Of a DNA stretch of 64,000 nucleotides, positions 43,925 to 53,068 are shown piece after piece. The first letter of the stretch is position 1, and each line of letters opens with the position of its first letter. Source of the DNA: Terriglobia bacterium (GTDB lineage Bacteria; Acidobacteriota; Terriglobia; JAJPHL01; JAPKYU01); contig CBDCVK010000010.1 in NCBI GenBank assembly GCA_965223005.1, positions 128,001-192,000 on the forward strand. The letters run 5' to 3'. The notes below the pieces were generated by a model. The model ran no database searches and had not been told where the DNA came from. It saw only the letters and a program-made list of their open reading frames with translations. The position numbers were made by a program, and so were the translations under genes.

Positions 43925-43977
43925 CACTGCGGTTTGGCATCTGGTAAGGATGTCAGCGGAGCGAGATCGCCTTTAGG

Positions 43978-44005
43978 TGGCGGAGAGGGAGGGATTCGAA
44001 CCCTC
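43978..44005 (-). mobile_element. 3' fragment of a tRNA-Ser (att-site remnant), left island boundary
   Basis: Minus strand GAGGGTTCGAATCCCTCCCTCTCCGCCA = T-arm, acceptor strand, G discriminator and CCA; no 5' half upstream. Confidence 0.8.
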
Positions 44006-44207
44006 ACTGTTTTCTGGAGCTACCTAAGTTACTGCTTTTCCCATGGGGCGAACGGGGCAAAGGGAGCGAAAAGCAGTATCTGGGGCATACAAAAGCGAAC
44101 CTCATCACTTGCGTCATCACCGAGACAACCGGCGCCGTCCGGCCTTGCCAAGCGGTCTATCATTAAACTGGTGCGGTGCTACTTCCTGGGGCGTTCCTCC
44201 TGATAAG

Positions 44208-44243
44208 CATAGGTAAACACTGACCGACTAGTGGGGACCTATC
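44208..44243. repeat. 15-6-15 site B1
   Basis: CATAGGTAAACACTG-ACCGAC-TAGTGGGGACCTATC. Confidence 0.85.
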
Positions 44244-44377
44244 TGCCAAGTCTGAACTAGCTTTTTCCGTTTCAGAGAATTACTGCAGCCTGAGAAAGTA
44301 TTAAGAGCGCGGGAGATAGACCAGACCAGTCATAGGAGTGGTCGTATGTGGCTATAATCACTGACTTGAGGAGTTCC

Positions 44378-46105
44378 ATGCGGTCCCTCTTGAACGAGCT
44401 GCTTATAGCGGCCGTGTTTTCCCTCATGTGTCTTCCAGCTTTGGGCCAGTTTGCTCAACCTGCTTACTCGCGGCTGGACGCGCAGGGCACTCTTCCTGCG
44501 GGGCGCGTTGACGCACCCATTGTGTACGACACACCGGGCCGCCGCTTATTAATGTTTGGCGGGAAGGATGCCGCCAGTCCGCGCAGCGACCTTTGGGAGT
44601 ATTCCTTCGATCGCCGCGAGTGGACCGAGTTGAATCCATCCGGGACCTTGCCTCCAGCTCGTTTTGGACATACCACGGTCTTTGATCCTGTTCGCCGCCG
44701 CCTGGTCTTATTTGGGGGCCAGTCCTCGGGGTTTTTCAGCGACGTTTGGGCATACGATATCGCTCAAAACACGTGGCAACAGCTTAGCTCCGACGAGGCC
44801 GGTCCGAACCGCCGGTATGGTCATTCGGCGATTTACGATGCTGCGAGAGATCGCCTTATCATCTCGCACGGGTTTACGAACGCCGGCCGATTCGATGACA
44901 CCTGGGCCTTTGAGCTGGGGACAAACACTTGGCAAGAGATCTCATCTTCCGAAATCAGGCCACTCCGTCGCTGTTTACACCACTCGGTTTACGACGAAGA
45001 AAACGGGCAAATGCTGTTGTTCGGGGGGTGCGCCAGTGGATTCGGCCCGTGCCCCCTGGATGATCTATGGTCGTTCGATTTGAGCACAAACCAATGGACG
45101 GAGCGCGGTCCGGCCCCTAAACCGGCGGCCCGACAATGGTATGGCATGGCGTTTGATCACACTCGCAGTCGGCTAGTCCTGTTTGGCGGATTAGGCGGCG
45201 GCTCTCTCAACGACACTTGGGAGTACGACACAGTCGCCGACTCCTGGAACCAACTCGCGCCCAGCGGCGAGATTCCCGTTGGCAGGTTTCGGCACGAAGC
45301 CACTTTTGTTGCCGATCTAGGAGCAGTCCTGTTTTTCGGCGGTCGTGTCGACTCCGGTCCCAGCAACGAACTCTGGATGCTGTCCTACTCCTCAAACGCC
45401 GTCGTCAACGCCGCCACGTTTCTTCCTGGCCTTGCTGCTCCGGGGCAAATCCTCACCCTGTTCGGCACCGATCTGGCCTCGATGACCTCTGGGGCCGGGG
45501 CACCGCCATTGCCGACCATGCTTGGGGGAGCGAGCGTGAAATTGGGGGACTTCGACGCTCCGCTGTTCTTCGTCTCGGCGCTTCAAATCAATTTCCAAGT
45601 CCCCTGGGAATTGGCGGGGCAGTCGCAGGCGTCCCTGATCGTTGCAAACGGCGGTACCACAATCGGCCCGATGAATGTGAGTCTGGCTCCCTTTGCTCCT
45701 GGCCTGTTTAGCACCGATCAGAGCGGCAGCGGCCAGGGAGCTATCCTGATCTCCGGCAGCGGGGGAGCGGCAGCAGCGCCCAGTGGTGCTTTGCCTGGTT
45801 CTCGGCCAGTCAGGCGTGGTGAATTTATCGAAATCTTCTCTATCGGCCTTGGGGCTGTGGAGAAACAGCCCGCCACTGGCGCGCCGGCATTGGCAAATCC
45901 CTTGTCGATGAGCACCTCGACTCCCGTGGTCACCATTGGCGGCGTGCACGCCGCCGTCAGTTTTTCCGGACTGGCTCCTGGTTTCGTAGGGCTTTACCAA
46001 GTCAACGCGGAGGTTCCGGCTAATGCCCGCACGGGGGACGCCGTCCCCGTGGTTCTCACCATTGGTCGTGCCACGTCCAACACCGTTACGATCGCCGTGC
46101 AGTAG
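44378..46105 (+). CDS. Secreted Kelch-repeat beta-propeller protein with TIGR03437-like C-terminal domain
   Basis: Six LFGG...D.W.Y repeats; VVNAATF..QINFQVP..GLAPGFVGLYQVN..SNTVTIAVQ. Confidence 0.88.
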   Translation: MRSLLNELLIAAVFSLMCLPALGQFAQPAYSRLDAQGTLPAGRVDAPIVYDTPGRRLLMFGGKDAASPRSDLWEYSFDRREWTELNPSGTLPPARFGHTTVFDPVRRRLVLFGGQSSGFFSDVWAYDIAQNTWQQLSSDEAGPNRRYGHSAIYDAARDRLIISHGFTNAGRFDDTWAFELGTNTWQEISSSEIRPLRRCLHHSVYDEENGQMLLFGGCASGFGPCPLDDLWSFDLSTNQWTERGPAPKPAARQWYGMAFDHTRSRLVLFGGLGGGSLNDTWEYDTVADSWNQLAPSGEIPVGRFRHEATFVADLGAVLFFGGRVDSGPSNELWMLSYSSNAVVNAATFLPGLAAPGQILTLFGTDLASMTSGAGAPPLPTMLGGASVKLGDFDAPLFFVSALQINFQVPWELAGQSQASLIVANGGTTIGPMNVSLAPFAPGLFSTDQSGSGQGAILISGSGGAAAAPSGALPGSRPVRRGEFIEIFSIGLGAVEKQPATGAPALANPLSMSTSTPVVTIGGVHAAVSFSGLAPGFVGLYQVNAEVPANARTGDAVPVVLTIGRATSNTVTIAVQ

Positions 46106-46279
46106 CCCCTGACAAACCCAGTGTTTCTGAGGTTCGCGCTGGACACGTCGTTGTGACTCTGATTCAATCCGAGGAACTGCGTGGCGGGTCGCATTTCCAA
46201 GCATTGCTCTCGGATGGCCAAACCTCGTTAGGTTTCCCCGCCGGCAGCGCGATGGCAATCTGGTGTTCGGATAAATGAC

Positions 46280-47599
46280 ATGCGAGACGAATTCACCCTT
46301 ACGCGTCGCCGGCTCATTGGTTCGAGTGTGGTGCTCGGAGCTTCAGGAGTAACCGCGGCCTCGGCGGCACTGAGCCCATCACACACTCGGCATCGCATCC
46401 ACCGGTCGGCACAATTACTCGCGCAAGAGTTTACCGTGGCTGCCAAGGTCCCCACGCCAGACCACTACATGCACGATCCAGGGATGACCCGGCTCGGCAA
46501 TGGTCGAATATTTGTCGCGGCGCCGTTAATGGGCTGGCGTGACAAGCGCGTAGCACGCCGAACCCGGAGTCTGCGTTTCATTGTGTCAAGAGAATTGCTT
46601 CTGTCTCGGAGTCGGGATGGAGGGAAGAGCTGGGAGTCTCTGCGGCCTTTACCGTACGTCAATGCAACTCCATTTGTTCATGACGGCAAGCTCTACATGA
46701 TGATCCCGACGGCAACCTATGAAACCCGGCACGATGGGGACAACAAGCTGCTTCTGCTCCGCAGCGATGATGAGGGTGATACCTGGTCCGACCCGGTCAC
46801 GCTGTTTGAAGGTAACTACTGGAATTGTCACACTGGCATGGCGACGGCGGGTGGCCAGCTCTATTGGGCCCTCACGAAAGGCGGCCGTCTCGTCGCGATT
46901 GCCGCCGACCTCTCGAAGGACTTGATGCAACCCGGCACGTGGCGGATGTCGAACGCCGTAAGCTTCCCCGGTGTGCCCCCTAGTCTTACTCGCGAGCTCT
47001 ATCCTCCAAAGGCGGGCGTATGGCCGGTCCAATGGGCTTCGGACGCATGGCTGGAGCCGAATGTTGTCCATGTTCACGGCCGCCTCCTCGTTCTGCTTCG
47101 CACGATCATTGACGAATACGCAACCGCGAGCCTTTGCAGCGTCTGCGACCTCGAGGACAGTGAATCGACGCTGAAGCTTTCCTTCTCGCAGTTCTATCCT
47201 CTCCCGGGCGGTCAGAACAAGTTCTTCATCCTTTACGACGACGTTTCCCGGCTGTTTTGGATGGCGTCCAATTTGGTGACCGATTCACAGGACTTTCAGA
47301 ACAACCGTGAAAGACTCATCGAGATCGGCTACCACGGAGGCCCAGGCAACGAACGTCGTCTCCTGTTTTTGTCCTACAGCCTCGACGCGTTGAATTGGTT
47401 TCCGGCTGGATGTATCGCCAAGTGGCCCAGTCCTCTGCAGGCATTCATGTATCCGTGCGTAGCGGTGGATGGGGACGACCTCGTGCTCATTTCTCGCACG
47501 TCGAAGGACGCTCAGAATCAGCACGACGCCGACCTGGTCACGTTCCACCGAATTCAGGACTTCCGGTCTTTGGCTCTGAACCTCCGTCCGGAGATCTAA
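46280..47599 (+). CDS. Tat-exported BNR/Asp-box (sialidase-fold) protein
   Basis: TRRRLI Tat signal; SRDGGKSW and SDDEGDTW Asp-boxes. Confidence 0.8.
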   Translation: MRDEFTLTRRRLIGSSVVLGASGVTAASAALSPSHTRHRIHRSAQLLAQEFTVAAKVPTPDHYMHDPGMTRLGNGRIFVAAPLMGWRDKRVARRTRSLRFIVSRELLLSRSRDGGKSWESLRPLPYVNATPFVHDGKLYMMIPTATYETRHDGDNKLLLLRSDDEGDTWSDPVTLFEGNYWNCHTGMATAGGQLYWALTKGGRLVAIAADLSKDLMQPGTWRMSNAVSFPGVPPSLTRELYPPKAGVWPVQWASDAWLEPNVVHVHGRLLVLLRTIIDEYATASLCSVCDLEDSESTLKLSFSQFYPLPGGQNKFFILYDDVSRLFWMASNLVTDSQDFQNNRERLIEIGYHGGPGNERRLLFLSYSLDALNWFPAGCIAKWPSPLQAFMYPCVAVDGDDLVLISRTSKDAQNQHDADLVTFHRIQDFRSLALNLRPEI

Positions 47600-47781
47600 G
47601 CACAGAGCGCAACTCAAGGCTGCACCCCACCAGTACACGAGGGCAAGGGTGGTCAGGGCGGGCGGATTGCCGCTCACCTGCATACTCCTCTGCCCACGGA
47701 TTCCGGTCATTGTGTCTGAGAACCTACTGAGCCGTGTACCCACCATCCACCATGAGCGGCGTGGCGGTAATAAAGGAAGCC

Positions 47782-49220
47782 GAGAGTGTCTCACCTTTAG
47801 TTGAAAGTCGAGCGGCGGTTCGCTGACCTGGTTCCGTAGAATCGGGTTGGGAAACTTTCTGGAAAGGGGAACCGCCGTGCAGAGAAGCTACCACATCCTA
47901 GGCCGGAGCGATAGCCGAAGCTCCCGCAAACTGGCTGCCTACCTGGCTCGCCACGGGCAGTTTCTGCTGCCCTGGGTGGAGTTGATCGAACAATCGCGGT
48001 TAGCCGTCGACGAGCTGATCGACGTGGTGGGTAGGGCGGCGATTGAAGCGGTGCTGGAGTTGTCGGCCGCGCAGGTGGCCGGTCCACGCCGTCAGGGCCG
48101 GCGGCGCCGTGGGGTAGGCTGGTATGGGCGCCAGCGGGGACGGGTGCGCCTGAAGGAGAGAAAGCTGGCCGTGCACAGGCCACGGCTCCGGCGGCCAGGC
48201 CGGGGAGCGGGGAAAGAAGTTCCCCTCCCGGCCTACGAAGCCATGCAGGAGGGCGAGGGTCTGGGGGCCCGGATGTTGGATATCTTGCTGCGGGGCGTCT
48301 CGACCCGGCAGTACCAGCGGGTGTTGCCGGAGATGGCGGACACCGTGGGTGTGTCGCGCTCCACGGTCAGCCGGGAAACGATGGAGGCTGCCGCAGCCGA
48401 GTTAGAACGTCTGTTGAACCGCCGCTTCGAGGAAGTAGAGTTGCTGATCCTCTACATCGACGGGATGGTGTTTGGCGACCATCACGTGATTGCGGCTGTG
48501 GGCGTGGATGCGGAAGGGCACAAGCACGTGCTGGGGATTCAGGAGGGGGCTACGGAGAACGCCGCGGCCGTCCAGGACTTGCTGGAAGGTTTAGTGCGGC
48601 GAGGGGTGCAGCCGGCCCAGAAACGGCTGTTTGTGATCGACGGCTCGAAGGCCTTGCGGGCGGCGATCCGCGCCGTGTTCGGGGCCGAGCAGCCGGTGCA
48701 GCGCTGCCGCGCCCACAAGTTGCGCAACGTCCTGGACCGGTTGCCGGAGCCAGAGCGGGACCAGGTGCGGGCGGCGATGCGGGCCGCCTGGCGGTTGGAT
48801 CCGAAGACCGGCAGGGCCAAGCTGGAGAAGTTGGCCCAATGGTTGGAGCGAGATTGTCCGGCCGCGGCGGCCAGCTTGCGGGAGGGTCTGGAGGAATGTT
48901 TCACCATCAACCGGCTGGGGCTTCCGGCTTCGCTGCATCGCTGTCTGGCCACCACCAATCTCATCGAGAGTCCGCAGGCGGGAGTGAGGTTGCGAACTCG
49001 CCGGGTGTGCCGCTGGCGGGATGCGGCCATGGTCCAGCGCTGGGTCGCCTCCAGCTTCCTGGCCACGGAGAAAAACTTCCGCCGCCTGATGGGGTACCAG
49101 GACCTGTGGATGTTGAAAGCGATCCTCGAAGGATCAAAGTCGGCCACTCGACGGGAGGTGGCGTAGTATGATGGCTCCGAACCGCCGCTACGAACTTTCA
49201 ACTGAGTTCAGGACACCCTC
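47782..49220 (+). mobile_element. Complete IS256-family element (1439 bp)
   Basis: About 41-bp imperfect TIRs (GAGAGTGTC..AGTTGAAAGT..AGCGGCGGTTCG); 8-bp TSD AGGAAGCC at 47774-47781 and 49221-49228. Confidence 0.95.
47877..49166 (+). CDS. IS256-family transposase
   Basis: GVSTR, YIDG, VIDGSKAL, QRCRAHK, TTNLIES. Confidence 0.95.
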   Translation: MQRSYHILGRSDSRSSRKLAAYLARHGQFLLPWVELIEQSRLAVDELIDVVGRAAIEAVLELSAAQVAGPRRQGRRRRGVGWYGRQRGRVRLKERKLAVHRPRLRRPGRGAGKEVPLPAYEAMQEGEGLGARMLDILLRGVSTRQYQRVLPEMADTVGVSRSTVSRETMEAAAAELERLLNRRFEEVELLILYIDGMVFGDHHVIAAVGVDAEGHKHVLGIQEGATENAAAVQDLLEGLVRRGVQPAQKRLFVIDGSKALRAAIRAVFGAEQPVQRCRAHKLRNVLDRLPEPERDQVRAAMRAAWRLDPKTGRAKLEKLAQWLERDCPAAAASLREGLEECFTINRLGLPASLHRCLATTNLIESPQAGVRLRTRRVCRWRDAAMVQRWVASSFLATEKNFRRLMGYQDLWMLKAILEGSKSATRREVA

Positions 49221-49988
49221 AGGAAGCCTCCTCAGAGGCAAGGAAGAGAATGGCATTCGCCACTTCGCGAGGATCGCCCATGCGCTTGATGAAATGCAGC
49301 GGTGCATACAGTTCCACTACCTGTTCCTTGGTCAGTCCCTTACTTGTGGCATCGCGCATTGTGGCGGGGGTATCTATAGCTCCCGGGCAGACGCAATTCA
49401 CGCGAATGTTATCCGGCGCCAGATCGAAGGCTAGGCATCGTGTCATCTGCAGCACTGCCCCTTTGCTGGCATTGTAGGGGACAAAAGCAGGCTGCGCGAT
49501 GAATGAGCTAATGGAGCCCAGGTTTACGATGGACCCGCCTCCGCGCTTTCGCATGTGGGGGACAGCGTACTTGGAGCAGAACGCGTACCCTTTGACGTTC
49601 ACGTTCAGGACCCGGTCCCAATCCTGCTCGCTGGCCTCTTCCACTGTTCCGAAAACAAAGGCCGCCGCGTTGTTCACCAGGATATCCGGGCCACCCAGTT
49701 CGCGGGCAGCGGTGTTCATCAGCTCCCGCACTTCGGACTCGATGGAGATATCGGTCTTGTGAAAGAAGGTCCTACCGCCGGCAGCTTTGATCCGGGCCAC
49801 AGTCTCCTCGCCGCCGCGGACGTCTAGGTCCGCTACACAAACAGCAGCGCCCTCCTCGGCAAAACGAATTGCCGTAGCCCGGCCAATTCCCGAACTTGAG
49901 CCGGTAACCACCGCCACTTTGTTCGCTAGACGCATGTTCTCCTCCTCAGCTCATTTCACCTGCGGCTTTCAGAACTTCTGCCTCAAAA

Positions 49989-50094
49989 CATGAGTAAACA
50001 CTAACGGGCTAGCGTTTACCAATGTTCTGCCTGGATGGTATGGCGTTCCTTAGTTAAGGATAGGTAAACACTAACCGACAAGTGGAAACCTACC
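49989..50094. repeat. Paired 15-6-15 sites A1 + linker + B2
   Basis: CATGAGTAAACACTA-ACGGGC-TAGCGTTTACCAATG (49989-50024); GATAGGTAAACACTA-ACCGAC-AAGTGGAAACCTACC (50059-50094). Confidence 0.9.
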
Positions 50095-50200
50095 TGCCAA
50101 GTCGGAGCCAACTCTTGCCGTATTAGGAAGGCCGCCGCTGATCACCGAGAGACAGATCGTGGCTGAAACCGCGTTCTGAGTGTGAGGGGAAAGAGAACTC

Positions 50201-51055
50201 TCACGGGTCACGGCGTTTCGGTGGGGCAGCTGACACGCCTTCTAAGCCACCACTGACTCTGAGCACCTCGCCCGTGATCCAAGAGGCTGCCGGACTGCAC
50301 AGAAAAGCAACGCTCCGTGCGATATCGGCTGGCTCTCCCCATCGCCCCAGCGGGATAGCGCTGCGAATGCGCTCAATCATCTGATCCTCGCTGAGATTCA
50401 GGGTTTGGCAGCGCTGCGCCATGACGGTCTTGTTAAATTCCGTGTAGACAGGCCCCGGACTCACGGCGTTTACCCGCACGCCGTAGGCGGCAAGCTCTAG
50501 TGCCAACGTCTTGGTCAGACTGATCACACCGGCCTTGGCCACGTTGTAGGCCGCGACCAGCGCTGCTGGATTCTGGCCGTTGATGGAGGCAATATTGACG
50601 ATACACCCGGATCCCTGCCGCTCCATGATTCGTGCTGCGGCGCGGCAACAACAGAACGTTCCGGTCAAGGTGACACCTAGGACGCGTGCCCATTCCTGGT
50701 CTGTCAGATGGACGACCGGGGCGACGTCTTGTCCAACACCGGCATTGTTGACCAGAATGTCCAACCGACCGTATTCAGCAACTGTCCTGTCGAAGAACCC
50801 GGTCACCCCACTACTGGCGGAGATATCCAAATGGGCTGGCTGCACATTCGAACCTTGCTCCCGCAACCTTTGGGCCGATGCCTGTGCATTTTCCAGTCTG
50901 ATGTCAGCTATGATCACCCCGGCGCCGTCGCAGGCAAGCTGCTCAGCGATCCCCAAGCCCAGCCCCTGGGCCGCTCCGGTCACCACCGCAACTAAGCCAT
51001 CCAGCCTATGCAAAGAAGTCGTACCTTCACTCATGAACGAACTCCCTTGATGCAT
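50201..51055 (-). CDS. SDR family oxidoreductase (FabG-like)
   Basis: TGAAQGLG, NNAG, YNVAK, PLGRWGEP. Confidence 0.92.
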   Translation of the reverse strand: MHQGSSFMSEGTTSLHRLDGLVAVVTGAAQGLGLGIAEQLACDGAGVIIADIRLENAQASAQRLREQGSNVQPAHLDISASSGVTGFFDRTVAEYGRLDILVNNAGVGQDVAPVVHLTDQEWARVLGVTLTGTFCCCRAAARIMERQGSGCIVNIASINGQNPAALVAAYNVAKAGVISLTKTLALELAAYGVRVNAVSPGPVYTEFNKTVMAQRCQTLNLSEDQMIERIRSAIPLGRWGEPADIARSVAFLCSPAASWITGEVLRVSGGLEGVSAAPPKRRDP

Positions 51056-51143
51056 TATCCCCGTCCAGCAAGACTACAGAGTCGGCCACAGCTACCACAT
51101 GACCGATCCGGCCAATGGACGTCAAGGTCTTACTCATTGGGTT

Positions 51144-51503
51144 TCATGGGCGGTCTCGGAGCGGTATTAACTCTCGGCAATTGGTAACGAAAGCATCAAG
51201 ATTATCAGGGACGAATCTAATACGCGGTGGCCAACCTCGCCTCCGGACGTACACGTGTGGATGGAATGCGGCCCAATCGTTATTGTACGACCACCAAGTC
51301 TCAATCGGGCGACGGAAAGCATCGGCAGCCACCGGCTTGGGACGTACGCCGATCTCTATGATCTTGTCGAATGGAATCTTGATCGCGTGGAAAAGAATCC
51401 GTGCTTCCAGCTCAATTCGGTCGCGGTAGATACGATACTCTTGACGCCAACTGAGACGGTGGGGATTGGAAACGTAAACCGGATCGTCTGTCGCGCTTCC
51501 CAT
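51144..51503 (-). CDS. Hypothetical protein
   Basis: 119-aa ORF with GAGG RBS; no recognised motif. Confidence 0.6.
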   Translation of the reverse strand: MGSATDDPVYVSNPHRLSWRQEYRIYRDRIELEARILFHAIKIPFDKIIEIGVRPKPVAADAFRRPIETWWSYNNDWAAFHPHVYVRRRGWPPRIRFVPDNLDAFVTNCRELIPLRDRP

Positions 51504-51555
51504 TCCTCGACTCGTTGACCTCAGCCACTACCCCAGAGTCAATTTACCGACCTGC

Positions 51556-51891
51556 TCATTGAGCCTTAGTTAGTTCAACACCGTCCACGACCATTTTCCA
51601 TCTACCGCCTTCTTGGTAAGGCGGCTTGGAAACGACGAAGATGGTTGAAAGGAATGAGATACCAACAGAGAAATCATCGCCTTGGAATCCTTGGAGAGGC
51701 CCAGTAATTGACGTTTTTCTCCCTTCCTTAAGCCGTTCGTATTCTATGCTCCCGTCTTGTGTAATTAACAGATACATTTCTGGGGCCCTCCACTGGCCAA
51801 CGTAGTCTGCTTTGTCAGCCGGGACTGGTTTGCCACAACTGGACAGAAATAACGTGAGAAGAAGGATTGCGGGAATTGCTCGAACGTTCAT
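51556..51891 (-). CDS. Hypothetical lipoprotein
   Basis: MNVRAIPAILLLTLFLSSC lipobox; WKMVVDGVEL terminus. Confidence 0.75.
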   Translation of the reverse strand: MNVRAIPAILLLTLFLSSCGKPVPADKADYVGQWRAPEMYLLITQDGSIEYERLKEGRKTSITGPLQGFQGDDFSVGISFLSTIFVVSKPPYQEGGRWKMVVDGVELTKAQ

Positions 51892-52167
51892 ATGGTGTCC
51901 CTTAGCTGGAATTTCCGGTTTCAACCCTTGCTCGGCTCCAGATTCTGGCCGGTCATGCGCCCCCCTCTTGCCGGCCATGCTACGCCCCGCCCCGCAGCCA
52001 AGTCAACGCGGCGACCCGGCCAGGCGCCGTTAGCTCTGCCGTCGTTGACAGTTTAAGGCCCGCGCGACCTAGACTCTGCCACATCTCTCCATTAGGCCCT
52101 TAGCCGCGCCACTGATTCCTCGGTGGCATAGCCTGCTCGCATGGTTGCCCCGTGATCCTGAATGCCG

Positions 52168-52272
52168 GATAGGTCTTCCCTAACGGGCTAGCGTTTACCA
52201 ATGTTCTGCCTGGATGGTATGGTGTTCCTTAGTAAGGATAGGTAAACACTAACCGACTAGTTGGGGCCTATC
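52168..52272. repeat. Paired 15-6-15 sites A2 + linker + B3
   Basis: GATAGGTCTTCCCTA-ACGGGC-TAGCGTTTACCAATG (52168-52203); GATAGGTAAACACTA-ACCGAC-TAGTTGGGGCCTATC (52237-52272). Confidence 0.9.
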
Positions 52273-52302
52273 TGTCACGGCACTAGTTCGAGGAGGTGGT
52301 TC

Positions 52303-52827
52303 ATGATTCGAAGATCAACCCTGGTTTCGACGCTCTTTCTCTTGGTCTCGGTGTCGGCGATCTCTCTCGCGGCGGACCACAAGAGGATTTTGACTGTTGA
52401 TGTTGCGTTGGCGAAAATCGCCGGCGGTGCCCTGACTGCGAGCAGCACGACCTCTCTACCGGTTCTCTATTTCGACACCGCCCAGGTGGCTGCCGCCTTT
52501 GACCGGGGCGCGGTGGTGCTGGGCGAAGAGCCCGGGCGCAACTACCAGGTGCACGCCAGTCGGCGCGAAAAAGCCGGCGAGGTTGAAGTACACCTGTTGG
52601 ATACGGATATTTTCTATGTGCTCCGAGGCACCGCAACTTTCGTCACCGGAGGCACGGTCGTGGGCGGAAAGACAACCGCGCCGAATGAGATCCTTGGGGC
52701 ATCCATCCGCGACGGCAAGACTCACCAGTTAGTTAAAGGCGACGTCATCATCGTGCCTCAAAGCACGCCCCACTGGTTCAAGCAAGTGAAGGCGCCCTTC
52801 CTCTACTTCGTTGTTAAAGTGCGCTGA
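52303..52827 (+). CDS. Secreted cupin-domain protein
   Basis: AGGAGG RBS; signal peptide; EVH..TDIFYVLRG and GDVIIVPQSTPHWF cupin motifs. Confidence 0.85.
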   Translation: MIRRSTLVSTLFLLVSVSAISLAADHKRILTVDVALAKIAGGALTASSTTSLPVLYFDTAQVAAAFDRGAVVLGEEPGRNYQVHASRREKAGEVEVHLLDTDIFYVLRGTATFVTGGTVVGGKTTAPNEILGASIRDGKTHQLVKGDVIIVPQSTPHWFKQVKAPFLYFVVKVR

Positions 52828-52847
52828 GGTCGGGTTCAGCAATGCCG

Positions 52848-52883
52848 GATAGGTCCACACTAACGGGCTAGTGTTTACTTACG
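52848..52883. repeat. 15-6-15 site A3
   Basis: GATAGGTCCACACTA-ACGGGC-TAGTGTTTACTTACG. Confidence 0.88.
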
Positions 52884-53068
52884 TTCCAGCCTGGACGTAT
52901 CTGGACGCCGGGAGGATCTATCTGGCATAATTGGTCCATCCGTGTTTGAAGCGCCAGGCTCTGGGGGGCTAAGCGTCGGGACGCGAGAGCCTCACAAACG
53001 CGTTTTTCGCCACTACGACGCGTGCACGGACCGGGAAGACCGTCGGTTCGCGGCAGGTGTCGTGATGA

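Follow-up and report, generated by a model that had tools for sequence, protein, structure and literature searches.

Paired 36-bp pseudo-palindromes as left and right boundaries of small gene-carrying units shuffled among related soil Acidobacteria

Introduction

Non-autonomous transposons that carry cargo genes include transposable modules and the mosaic transposons built from Tn3-derived inverted-repeat miniature elements (TIMEs), as the accessible portions of the sources describe them (PMC4133298, PMC3281130, PMC6199540, PMC6542083). A different arrangement is found in the pdif modules of Acinetobacter, where inversely oriented two-arm sites with differing centres flank the modules, the centre sequence of pdif/xrs sites sets their compatibility, and recombination takes place between molecules rather than by excision of the module, according to the portion of the source available (PMC11705084). 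Here, we describe a family of 36-bp sites found in a stretch of 64,000 nucleotides (the window) from a Terriglobia bacterium (GenBank assembly GCA_965223005.1, contig CBDCVK010000010.1, positions 128,001 to 192,000), in which six paired palindromes bracket three blocks of genes. The six palindromes are real. They form the left and right boundaries of small units that carry genes and are shuffled among related Acidobacteria of the soil. Complete units of this kind are closest in working principle to mobile insertion cassettes (MICs) and other non-autonomous cargo transposons, while the site pairs are closest in layout to the pdif/xrs modules of Acinetobacter.

In soil, the Acidobacteria belong to the most abundant bacteria, yet the ways in which they gain and reshuffle accessory genes are little understood. 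The family described here carries, for example, dehydrogenases, beta-propeller proteins, cupins, transporters and regulators, and is expanded in one genus of the Terriglobia. It is apparently an undescribed, large family of gene-carrying, transposon-like elements: no description of such a family was found in the literature searched, and a large survey of MITEs, the miniature transposable elements with inverted repeats, accessible in part, may list it in its supplements (PMC11602168).

Genomes and methods

The window corresponds to C10:128001-192000 of the host genome G000 (3.24 Mb, 10 contigs, 96% complete), and coordinates without a prefix refer to it. Genomes of the same genus that were compared are G000, G001, G002 (62% complete) and G003. 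The genome-wide site set was obtained with nhmmer profiles of the two site types, A and B (E <= 0.01), and the position of sites relative to open reading frames (ORFs) was judged on a greedy ORF map of G000. Site anatomy was derived from a set of well-formed sites (n=53) drawn from G000 and from the fetched parts of G001 and G003. A scan of metagenomes for the element terminus matched at least 120 contigs, and 80 loci (462 kb) were analysed. Cargo of G000 units outside the window was read by eye from translations, and cargo of relatives and metagenomes was scanned against Pfam. Parts of the stretch are contained in 21 public sequencing runs; the four that were examined were all assembled contigs, a level at which rare circles or deletions cannot be revealed.

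Results

The six window sites each consist of two 15-bp arms around a 6-bp spacer on the plus strand, and the arms fall into an AAA type (X) and a CCC type (Y). Type B, X|ACCGAC|Y', reads AAA-arm, spacer, GGG-arm and occupies 44208..44243 (B1, left end of unit 1), 50059..50094 (B2, left end of unit 2) and 52237..52272 (B3, left end of unit 3), all three being found by the consensus and genome scans. Type A, Y|ACGGGC|X', reads CCC-arm, spacer, TTT-arm and is an inverted B with the AAA and CCC arms exchanged and a different spacer, as seen in window repeat pair I1 and in a fuzzy genome scan; it occupies 52168..52203 (A2, right end of unit 2) and 52848..52883 (A3, right end of unit 3). The site at 49989..50024 (A1) is an atypical member, X|ACGGGC|X', with both arms of the AAA type. 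A search for the two-arm consensus around any 6 nt with at most three mismatches recovered the sites at 44208, 50059, 52237 and 52848 and gave no match in 100 shuffles, and none of the six is expected by chance; those at 49989 and 52168 are more diverged and were recovered as repeat family D2 and in the fuzzy genome scan. The A-linker-B joints of the window are 98% identical over 54 nt (repeat family D3), with a 34-nt linker between A1 and B2 (50025..50058, plus strand) and a second one, 98% identical to the first, between A2 and B3 (52204..52236, plus strand). A preliminary description of this DNA had claimed six 15-6-15 sites, with ACCGAC in the three B and ACGGGC in the three A copies, in the order B-cargo-A-linker-B-cargo-A-linker-B-cargo-A, and in all of this it was correct. 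The strict alternation that it also proposed holds in the window but breaks down elsewhere, as an extra A lies between the BNR and short-chain dehydrogenase (SDR) genes in G001 and A-A neighbours occur in G000.

The roles of arms and spacers are fixed well beyond the window. The 53 well-formed sites comprise 27 X|ACCGAC|Y', 23 Y|ACGGGC|X', two X|ACGGGC|X' and one ambiguous copy; the X arm always points outward and the Y arm toward the cargo, and in 50 of 53 sites ACCGAC is the left and ACGGGC the right spacer. Conservation extends into the flanks. On the inner side it covers about 25 nt next to A and, with a small hairpin included, 40-60 nt next to B; on the outer side it covers about 50 nt in both types, and the outer flanks of B and A are mutual inverted repeats. 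Each core lies within a conserved end module of about 110-140 nt. In the window, the inner flank of B1 ('Bin', 44244..44300, plus strand) is common to other B ends (repeat family D1), for example that of the complete unit at G000:C10:1576838. Within the cores, mirrored arm positions vary without compensation, with T-T at positions 4/33 in 16 of 32 sites and A-C at positions 6/31 in eight of 32, and because the arms vary in this way, a conserved hairpin at the cores appears unlikely and recognition by a protein likely. No Rfam family matched any site, at E-values up to 0.1, in the window region and three other loci, where the matches were one tRNA and one weak tmRNA 3' end, neither of them at a site.

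The sites belong to a dispersed family. The nhmmer profiles found 58 of them in G000 (38 A and 20 B), which corrects the view of a purely local array; they fall between long ORFs, overlap only short or marginal ones, and form about 25 clustered regions. For 12 of the 20 B sites, a correctly oriented A lies 0.6-8 kb to the cargo side, and five B sites have an inverted A-like site about 100-150 nt upstream; many A sites are solitary, and some have another A as neighbour. A strict 30-nt pattern has 32, 55, 7 and 35 copies in G000, G001, G002 and G003, respectively, against none for a control pattern, and 16 of 297 other genomes of the class have one to four copies each (24 matches versus seven for the control). 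Sites in other genera have spacers of the forms ..CGAC or ACG..., and some lie between convergent genes. G131, from another family, has the order B-[HAD, GH65]-A-25 nt-B. Exact pattern matches in four records of a species collection, including a Vicinamibacteria and a Gemmatimonadetes metagenome-assembled genome (MAG), are little informative on spread; the Gemmatimonadetes MAG holds an A-36 nt-B doublet with spacers ACGGGC and CGCGAC. As a separate observation, a GH65 glycoside phosphorylase gene adjoins an A site in two families of the class, split at G000:C10:1552219 (L022) and intact together with HAD in G131 (L020); the associated site or the whole block is either ancient or transferred.

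Complete units elsewhere are non-autonomous transposons carrying ordinary genes, because they have terminal inverted repeats and 8-bp target duplications and one of their sites is empty in a relative. A common subtype has at the tip of its outward flank a terminal inverted repeat of about 45 nt beginning GGTAGTGGGTCAGTTTCCG, present in 24 copies in G000 at up to three mismatches. The unit at G000:C10:899896-901951 shows the full anatomy, with left terminus, B, a gene for an FHA protein, a gene for a 179-aa protein, A and right terminus, and with CTCGCTTT on both sides, and the equivalent locus of G003 has no unit and a single related octamer. Similarly, the unit at C2:490628-492202 lies between GGGCGCTT and GAGCGCTT, a duplication matching at 7/8 positions; its locus is empty in G003, which carries the unit (88% identical) elsewhere. 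Among four terminus pairs in G000, one has an 8/8, one a 7/8 and one a 6/7 duplication and one has none; among 12 inverted pairs in G001 and G003, one of which is a 310-bp MITE, the counts are four 8/8, three 7/8, one 6/8 and four without. The 24 pairs in the 80 metagenome loci include eight with 8/8 and five with 7/8 duplications. The preliminary description had considered a plain MITE with target duplications as a refuting outcome; terminal inverted repeats with 8-bp duplications, the hallmark of DDE-type transposition, do occur at other loci, but the units carry genes and are more than plain MITEs.

The terminus-bearing elements are a widespread family of gene-carrying non-autonomous transposons in their own right. 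At least 120 environmental metagenome contigs, from soil and peat, contain the terminus GGTAGTRGGTCAGTTTCCG (loci L071-L150), and its pairs there enclose single ordinary genes and have 8-bp duplications. A 574-nt unit at G000:C10:769507-770080 has both termini, a small ORF resembling an Hsp15/S4-type heat-shock protein by eye, and no clear target duplication.

Comparison of the relatives indicates that the window array itself is variable. In G002, homology runs from comEC to window position 43944, is interrupted by 91 unrelated bases, and resumes at 52890, 6 nt beyond A3, so that a segment of about 8.9 kb holding the whole array (43945..52889) is absent. This 'empty' locus retains the stretch after A3, with a Y'-type half-site and a motif resembling the element terminus, and the difference from the window is not a clean insertion. 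The relic half-site lies at 52910..52922 (plus strand) in the window, 26 nt past the last A, and matches the Y' arm of an inverted A upstream of the gene for a 364-aa protein in G003. G001 has the array without the insertion sequence (IS) of the IS256 family, with a Kelch-BNR deletion and with an extra 494 nt, including a further A-like site, between the BNR and the first SDR gene; in addition, two copies of an IS encoding a 442-aa protein bound an inversion of about 270 kb in G001, which breaks the array at window position ~51452 (L031, L032). In G003, the BNR gene stands at another locus directly after an A site, the second SDR gene stands alone at another locus with no sites nearby, and the 364-aa gene, which lies downstream of A3 in the window, is found at another locus preceded by the inverted A. 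The proposal that the sites bound variable, mobile gene blocks is supported by the absence of the segment from G002 and by the relocation of the three genes in G003, as well as by the left and right roles that the two spacer types keep throughout the genome. Reassortment is also seen outside the window, where a major facilitator superfamily (MFS) gene and an aldo/keto reductase gene are joined between the A sites C2:222257 and C2:225635 in G000 and lie beside different sites in G001 (99% and 95% identity).

No circular or deleted form joined at sites was seen in the assembled contigs of the four public runs. Two backward joints, 52878/52888->46132 and ~52210->~44210, were tried as circle junctions and rejected, being paralogous or allelic arrangements; their counterparts are an A before the BNR gene as in G003 and a doublet of the type at C2:519256, respectively.

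The cargo of the window consists of familiar genes. Unit 1 carries a 585-aa Kelch-repeat protein (44348..46105, plus strand), a 439-aa BNR-repeat protein (46280..47599, plus strand) and an SDR (49219..49935, minus strand) whose 3' end is truncated by the IS256-family element and which has 254 aa in G001. This IS (47782..49220, plus strand; repeat pair I5, PF00872) has its own inverted repeats and an 8-bp duplication, AGGAAGCC, and is absent at the same spot in G001 and other samples. The cargo block of unit 2 (50201..51978, minus strand) holds a second SDR (50201-51055) and two ORFs without Pfam family (51144-51503 and 51556-51978), and unit 3 carries a cupin-domain protein (52294..52827, plus strand), whose ORF is listed from TTG at 52261 and whose ATG at 52294 is preceded by GGAGG. 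Pfam thus confirmed the Kelch, BNR, SDR::IS256, SDR and cupin assignments of the preliminary description, but not its 'lipoprotein', two ORFs being without family. Tested cargo in relatives and metagenomes comprises SDRs, BNR, WD40, TPR and GH43 proteins, a hydrolase, a GNAT protein, a cNMP-binding protein and several without Pfam family, and all ORFs in the 20 scanned units are ordinary or familyless except for one DDE_Tnp_1_4 ORF, perhaps that of a nested IS, inside a 3.3-kb unit of G001. By eye, the genes carried by G000 units look equally ordinary. No tyrosine recombinase was found among the cargo ORFs in the Pfam scans of window, relatives and metagenomes or in the reading of G000 cargo, in keeping with the claim that the gene blocks contain no recombinase. 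A tyrosine-recombinase gene adjoining a terminal site had been suggested as something to look for; G000 has 12 matches, none in the window region and none conserved beside sites. Two Xer-like proteins are encoded at G000:C6:110879-111394 and C2:179615-180175.

Discussion

We give a probability of about 45% to the reading that the six sites are the 36-bp cores of left (B) and right (A) end modules of non-autonomous gene-carrying mobile units, three of which stand head to tail in the window. This is one of two ways of understanding the cores, as protein-binding parts of long asymmetric transposon ends. It rests on the transposon signatures, on the inverted arrangement of the cores and on the constant spacing between core and terminus. 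Complete units would be mobilised by DDE-type transposition through an enzyme provided in trans. A weak candidate for it is an IS256/Mutator-type transposase, since 8-bp duplications are made by the resident IS256 as well. The cores would be protein-binding sites that distinguish the left from the right end. The window units may have lost their outer repeats and now form a fixed tandem array, in which deletion, the insertion of ISs and recombination between the repeated ends are probably the main sources of change.

Several observations weigh against this reading. The window has no match to the terminus at up to three mismatches, and transposition of its own units is thus not demonstrated. Because nhmmer gave no A or B site in the 80 terminus-bearing metagenome loci (462 kb), terminus and 36-bp core are separable modules; a few diverged A/B sites were seen by eye about 45-60 nt inside the terminus (L096, L127), and A-linker-B doublets without terminus stand in G131 and in the Gemmatimonadetes MAG record. 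None of the repeated elements of G000 has the unit termini, which leaves the genome without a cognate autonomous element among them, and by eye only about nine of 13 terminal bases are alike between IS256 and the units. At C10:899896, insertion site and duplication are common to G000 and G001, but nearly the whole interior differs, and the right end in G001 is without A. Plain inverted-repeat copies should have spacers that are reverse complements; the A and B spacers match in this way at only two of six bases, and this asymmetry is conserved. Finally, half-sites end at the spacer edge or within 3 nt of it at C10:599010, C2:224323, L036:1329, L054:2674, C5:234587 and C5:235767, which would fit cleavage by a site-specific recombinase; this is suggestive only, as the set is small and the search anchors required an intact arm and, in part, the exact spacer.

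In the second understanding of the cores, in essence that of the preliminary description, A and B would be crossover sites of a site-specific cassette system, with X and Y comparable to the two arms of a dif site; a tyrosine recombinase would act in trans, AxA or BxB exchange would excise, insert or swap units, and the terminal-repeat transposon would be a mere carrier that spread loaded site pairs around the genome. In a variant of it, B and A would be the attL and attR that result when a Y|ACCGAC|Y' cassette site integrates into an X|ACGGGC|X' target, one strand being exchanged at one spacer edge. We hold such a system to be possible but doubtful. The conservation of two spacer classes in fixed left and right roles, with related classes (..CGAC, ACG...) in other genera, is what it would lead one to expect, and two 15-bp arms around 6 bp without covariation fit binding by a protein dimer. 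Doublets without terminal repeat (window, C2:519256, G131 and the Gemmatimonadetes record), the half-sites that end at spacer edges, the different cargo between conserved ends at C10:899896 and the segments of one G000 block that adjoin different sites in G001 point the same way, and the A1 hybrid looks exactly as the product of a BxA deletion, or an unoccupied target, should. However, none of the 12 tyrosine-recombinase matches of G000 is conserved beside sites, and the one 596-aa enzyme found there has only 27-31% relatives. X..X' targets and Y..Y' cassette sites were sought in four genomes and gave only one X..X' locus (A1 and its orthologue in G001) and no Y..Y', all other matches being ordinary A or B sites. 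The swapped segment at C10:899896 extends past A and B nearly to the termini, a simpler cause of such swaps would be homologous recombination between the end modules of about 100 nt, and no site-joined circle or deletion was seen in the contigs. The likeness of the two spacers in direct alignment (4/6) was considered as support for the attL/attR variant and was dropped, as doublets in other taxa are without it. A combination of both mechanisms, which we consider unlikely, would be a two-tier shuffling, in which a site-specific recombinase, possibly a class-conserved host enzyme, swaps cassettes at two incompatible sites and terminal-repeat carriers scatter the loaded pairs by transposition; ACCGAC would then be the left and ACGGGC the right boundary, with outward arms belonging to the backbone and inward arms to the cassette.

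Two accounts without mobile units are very improbable in the light of the same data. Repetitive extragenic palindromes (REPs) of the kind arranged in bacterial interspersed mosaic elements (BIMEs) or in paired form as REPINs, and spread by a REP-associated tyrosine transposase (RAYT, a Y1 HUH transposase), would make the cassettes genes that merely happen to lie between repeats. The sites are indeed imperfect palindromes of about 36 nt between long ORFs, occur singly or as inverted doublets with short linkers, and come in two flavours, for which the Y and Z REPs of BIMEs are a comparable case. Yet G000 has no Y1_Tnp (PF01797) match, whereas the same search gave matches, all over the cut-off, in six of 14 control genomes; there are no compensatory changes that would preserve a hairpin; the copies number only 58 and cluster in variable regions; long conserved flanks, terminal repeats and 8-bp duplications are features that REPs lack; and doublets also lie between divergent gene starts. 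Operators of a dimeric transcription factor, or bidirectional terminators, duplicated together with paralogous genes would explain the palindromic form, the position of some sites between convergent genes in other genera and the terminator-like score of A1 on the minus strand, but the cargo is unrelated between units, the sites occupy every intergenic setting including divergent promoter regions, the scan found no clean stem-plus-T-run terminator except A1, and no Rfam family matches. The pairing of ends, the target duplications and the presence/absence differences indicate mobile DNA instead, and we give this account as little weight as the former.

Among described systems, the units are best likened to mobile insertion cassettes, such as MIC231 of Bacillus cereus, and related non-autonomous cargo transposons. 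MIC-like transposons, so far as the accessible parts of the sources on them go, share with the units terminal inverted repeats around ordinary passenger genes, no internal transposase, target duplications and a transposase presumed to act in trans. The family described here differs in that no cognate autonomous element was found in G000, that its ends of about 110-140 nt contain a 36-bp pseudo-palindrome with a spacer differing between left and right, that its members are many and diverse, the terminus being present in at least 120 metagenome contigs, and that the window units are without the terminal repeat. With the pdif/xrs modules, in the portion of the source available, the units share the placement of modules between inversely oriented two-arm sites, a 6-bp centre and the lack of an internal recombinase (PMC11705084). 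In contrast to those modules, the arms here are 15 bp long and, by eye only, unlike dif arms, the sites are chromosomal and not on Rep_3 plasmids, neighbouring units are joined by A-linker-B doublets and not by a common site, and many copies have transposon ends and target duplications. A scan of G000 for a canonical dif site gave no convincing one, and a dif survey, in its accessible part, predicted dif in the three Acidobacteria that it covered, mainly via a Firmicutes profile (PMC3025954).

Integrons likewise hold arrays of short gene cassettes without their own recombinase, and the A-linker-B doublet is formally attC-like, with two inverted simple sites, a variable centre and unpaired spacers. 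However, RYYYAAC / GTTRRRY cores are not seen at the expected places (by eye, against the consensus), the boxes have 15 and not 7 bp, cargo lies in both orientations and sometimes comprises several genes, neither an integron integrase nor attI adjoins the array, half-sites are present at the array ends, and mirrored arm positions show no covariation for a folded strand. REPs, BIMEs and REPINs resemble the family as intergenic imperfect palindromes in singlets and inverted doublets of two flavours and differ from it where it has no RAYT gene, no hairpin covariation, a low, clustered copy number and long flanks with terminal repeats and target duplications. IS256 is a member of the Mutator superfamily. 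An analogy, and only that, may be drawn to the Pack-MULEs (plant Mutator-like elements with fragments of host genes), with long terminal inverted repeats containing internal protein-binding motifs, 8-9-bp duplications, captured host genes and no transposase inside; the units here are bacterial and carry whole genes.

If the 36-bp sites are recombination sites, they would make up a new and directly testable cassette-exchange system, for which natural 'loaded', 'differently loaded' and 'empty' alleles exist, and a two-tier system would, if true, be a functional analogue of integrons and pdif modules with unrelated sites and a transposon vehicle. If the cores serve only to bind a transposase, the family would still be a clear bacterial case of large-scale gene carriage by non-autonomous transposons.

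Other features of the locus and the host genome

The atypical A1 is the only site with two matching arms; downstream of the second SDR on the minus strand (49993-50020), it scores as an intrinsic-terminator-like hairpin with a T-run. A 28-nt copy of the 3' end of tRNA-Ser(GGA) (43978..44005, minus strand), with 100% identity to G000:C10:222037-222064, lies where the variable segment begins on the left; it is likely an old relic of an integrase attachment site. The piece is inverted and about 50 kb from the real tRNA, and has exact matches in many genomes of the class. All large contigs of G000 have a nearly flat cumulative GC skew, and origin and terminus cannot be placed by it.

An integrase with a C-terminal DUF3489 beside the B site at C10:109467 was considered as the enzyme of the family and rejected, its relatives in G001 and G003 being only 27-31% identical. 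This 596-aa tyrosine recombinase stands just outside B in the region G000:C10:107471-114914 (L021), and the 3' fragment of another integrase gene and a tRNA-Val lie just outside the partner A at 114304. The cargo of the unit is a 1504-aa DUF7948/SBBP/BACON protein, and because of these flanks the unit belongs to a tRNA-linked island. At the region of the integrase fragment, G001 has a longer ORF of 249 aa, and the integrase may be intact there.

Further IS256 copies were found in G000 at C2:60603, C2:417972, C2:488493, C3:13847, C6:83002, C8:237560 and C9:82609. They are 99-100% identical within G000 and to those of G001 and G003, and because the shared genome backbone is only 85-96% identical, this suggests a recent spread of IS256 between the lineages. 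For several of them, an A or B site is no more than 2.5 kb away.

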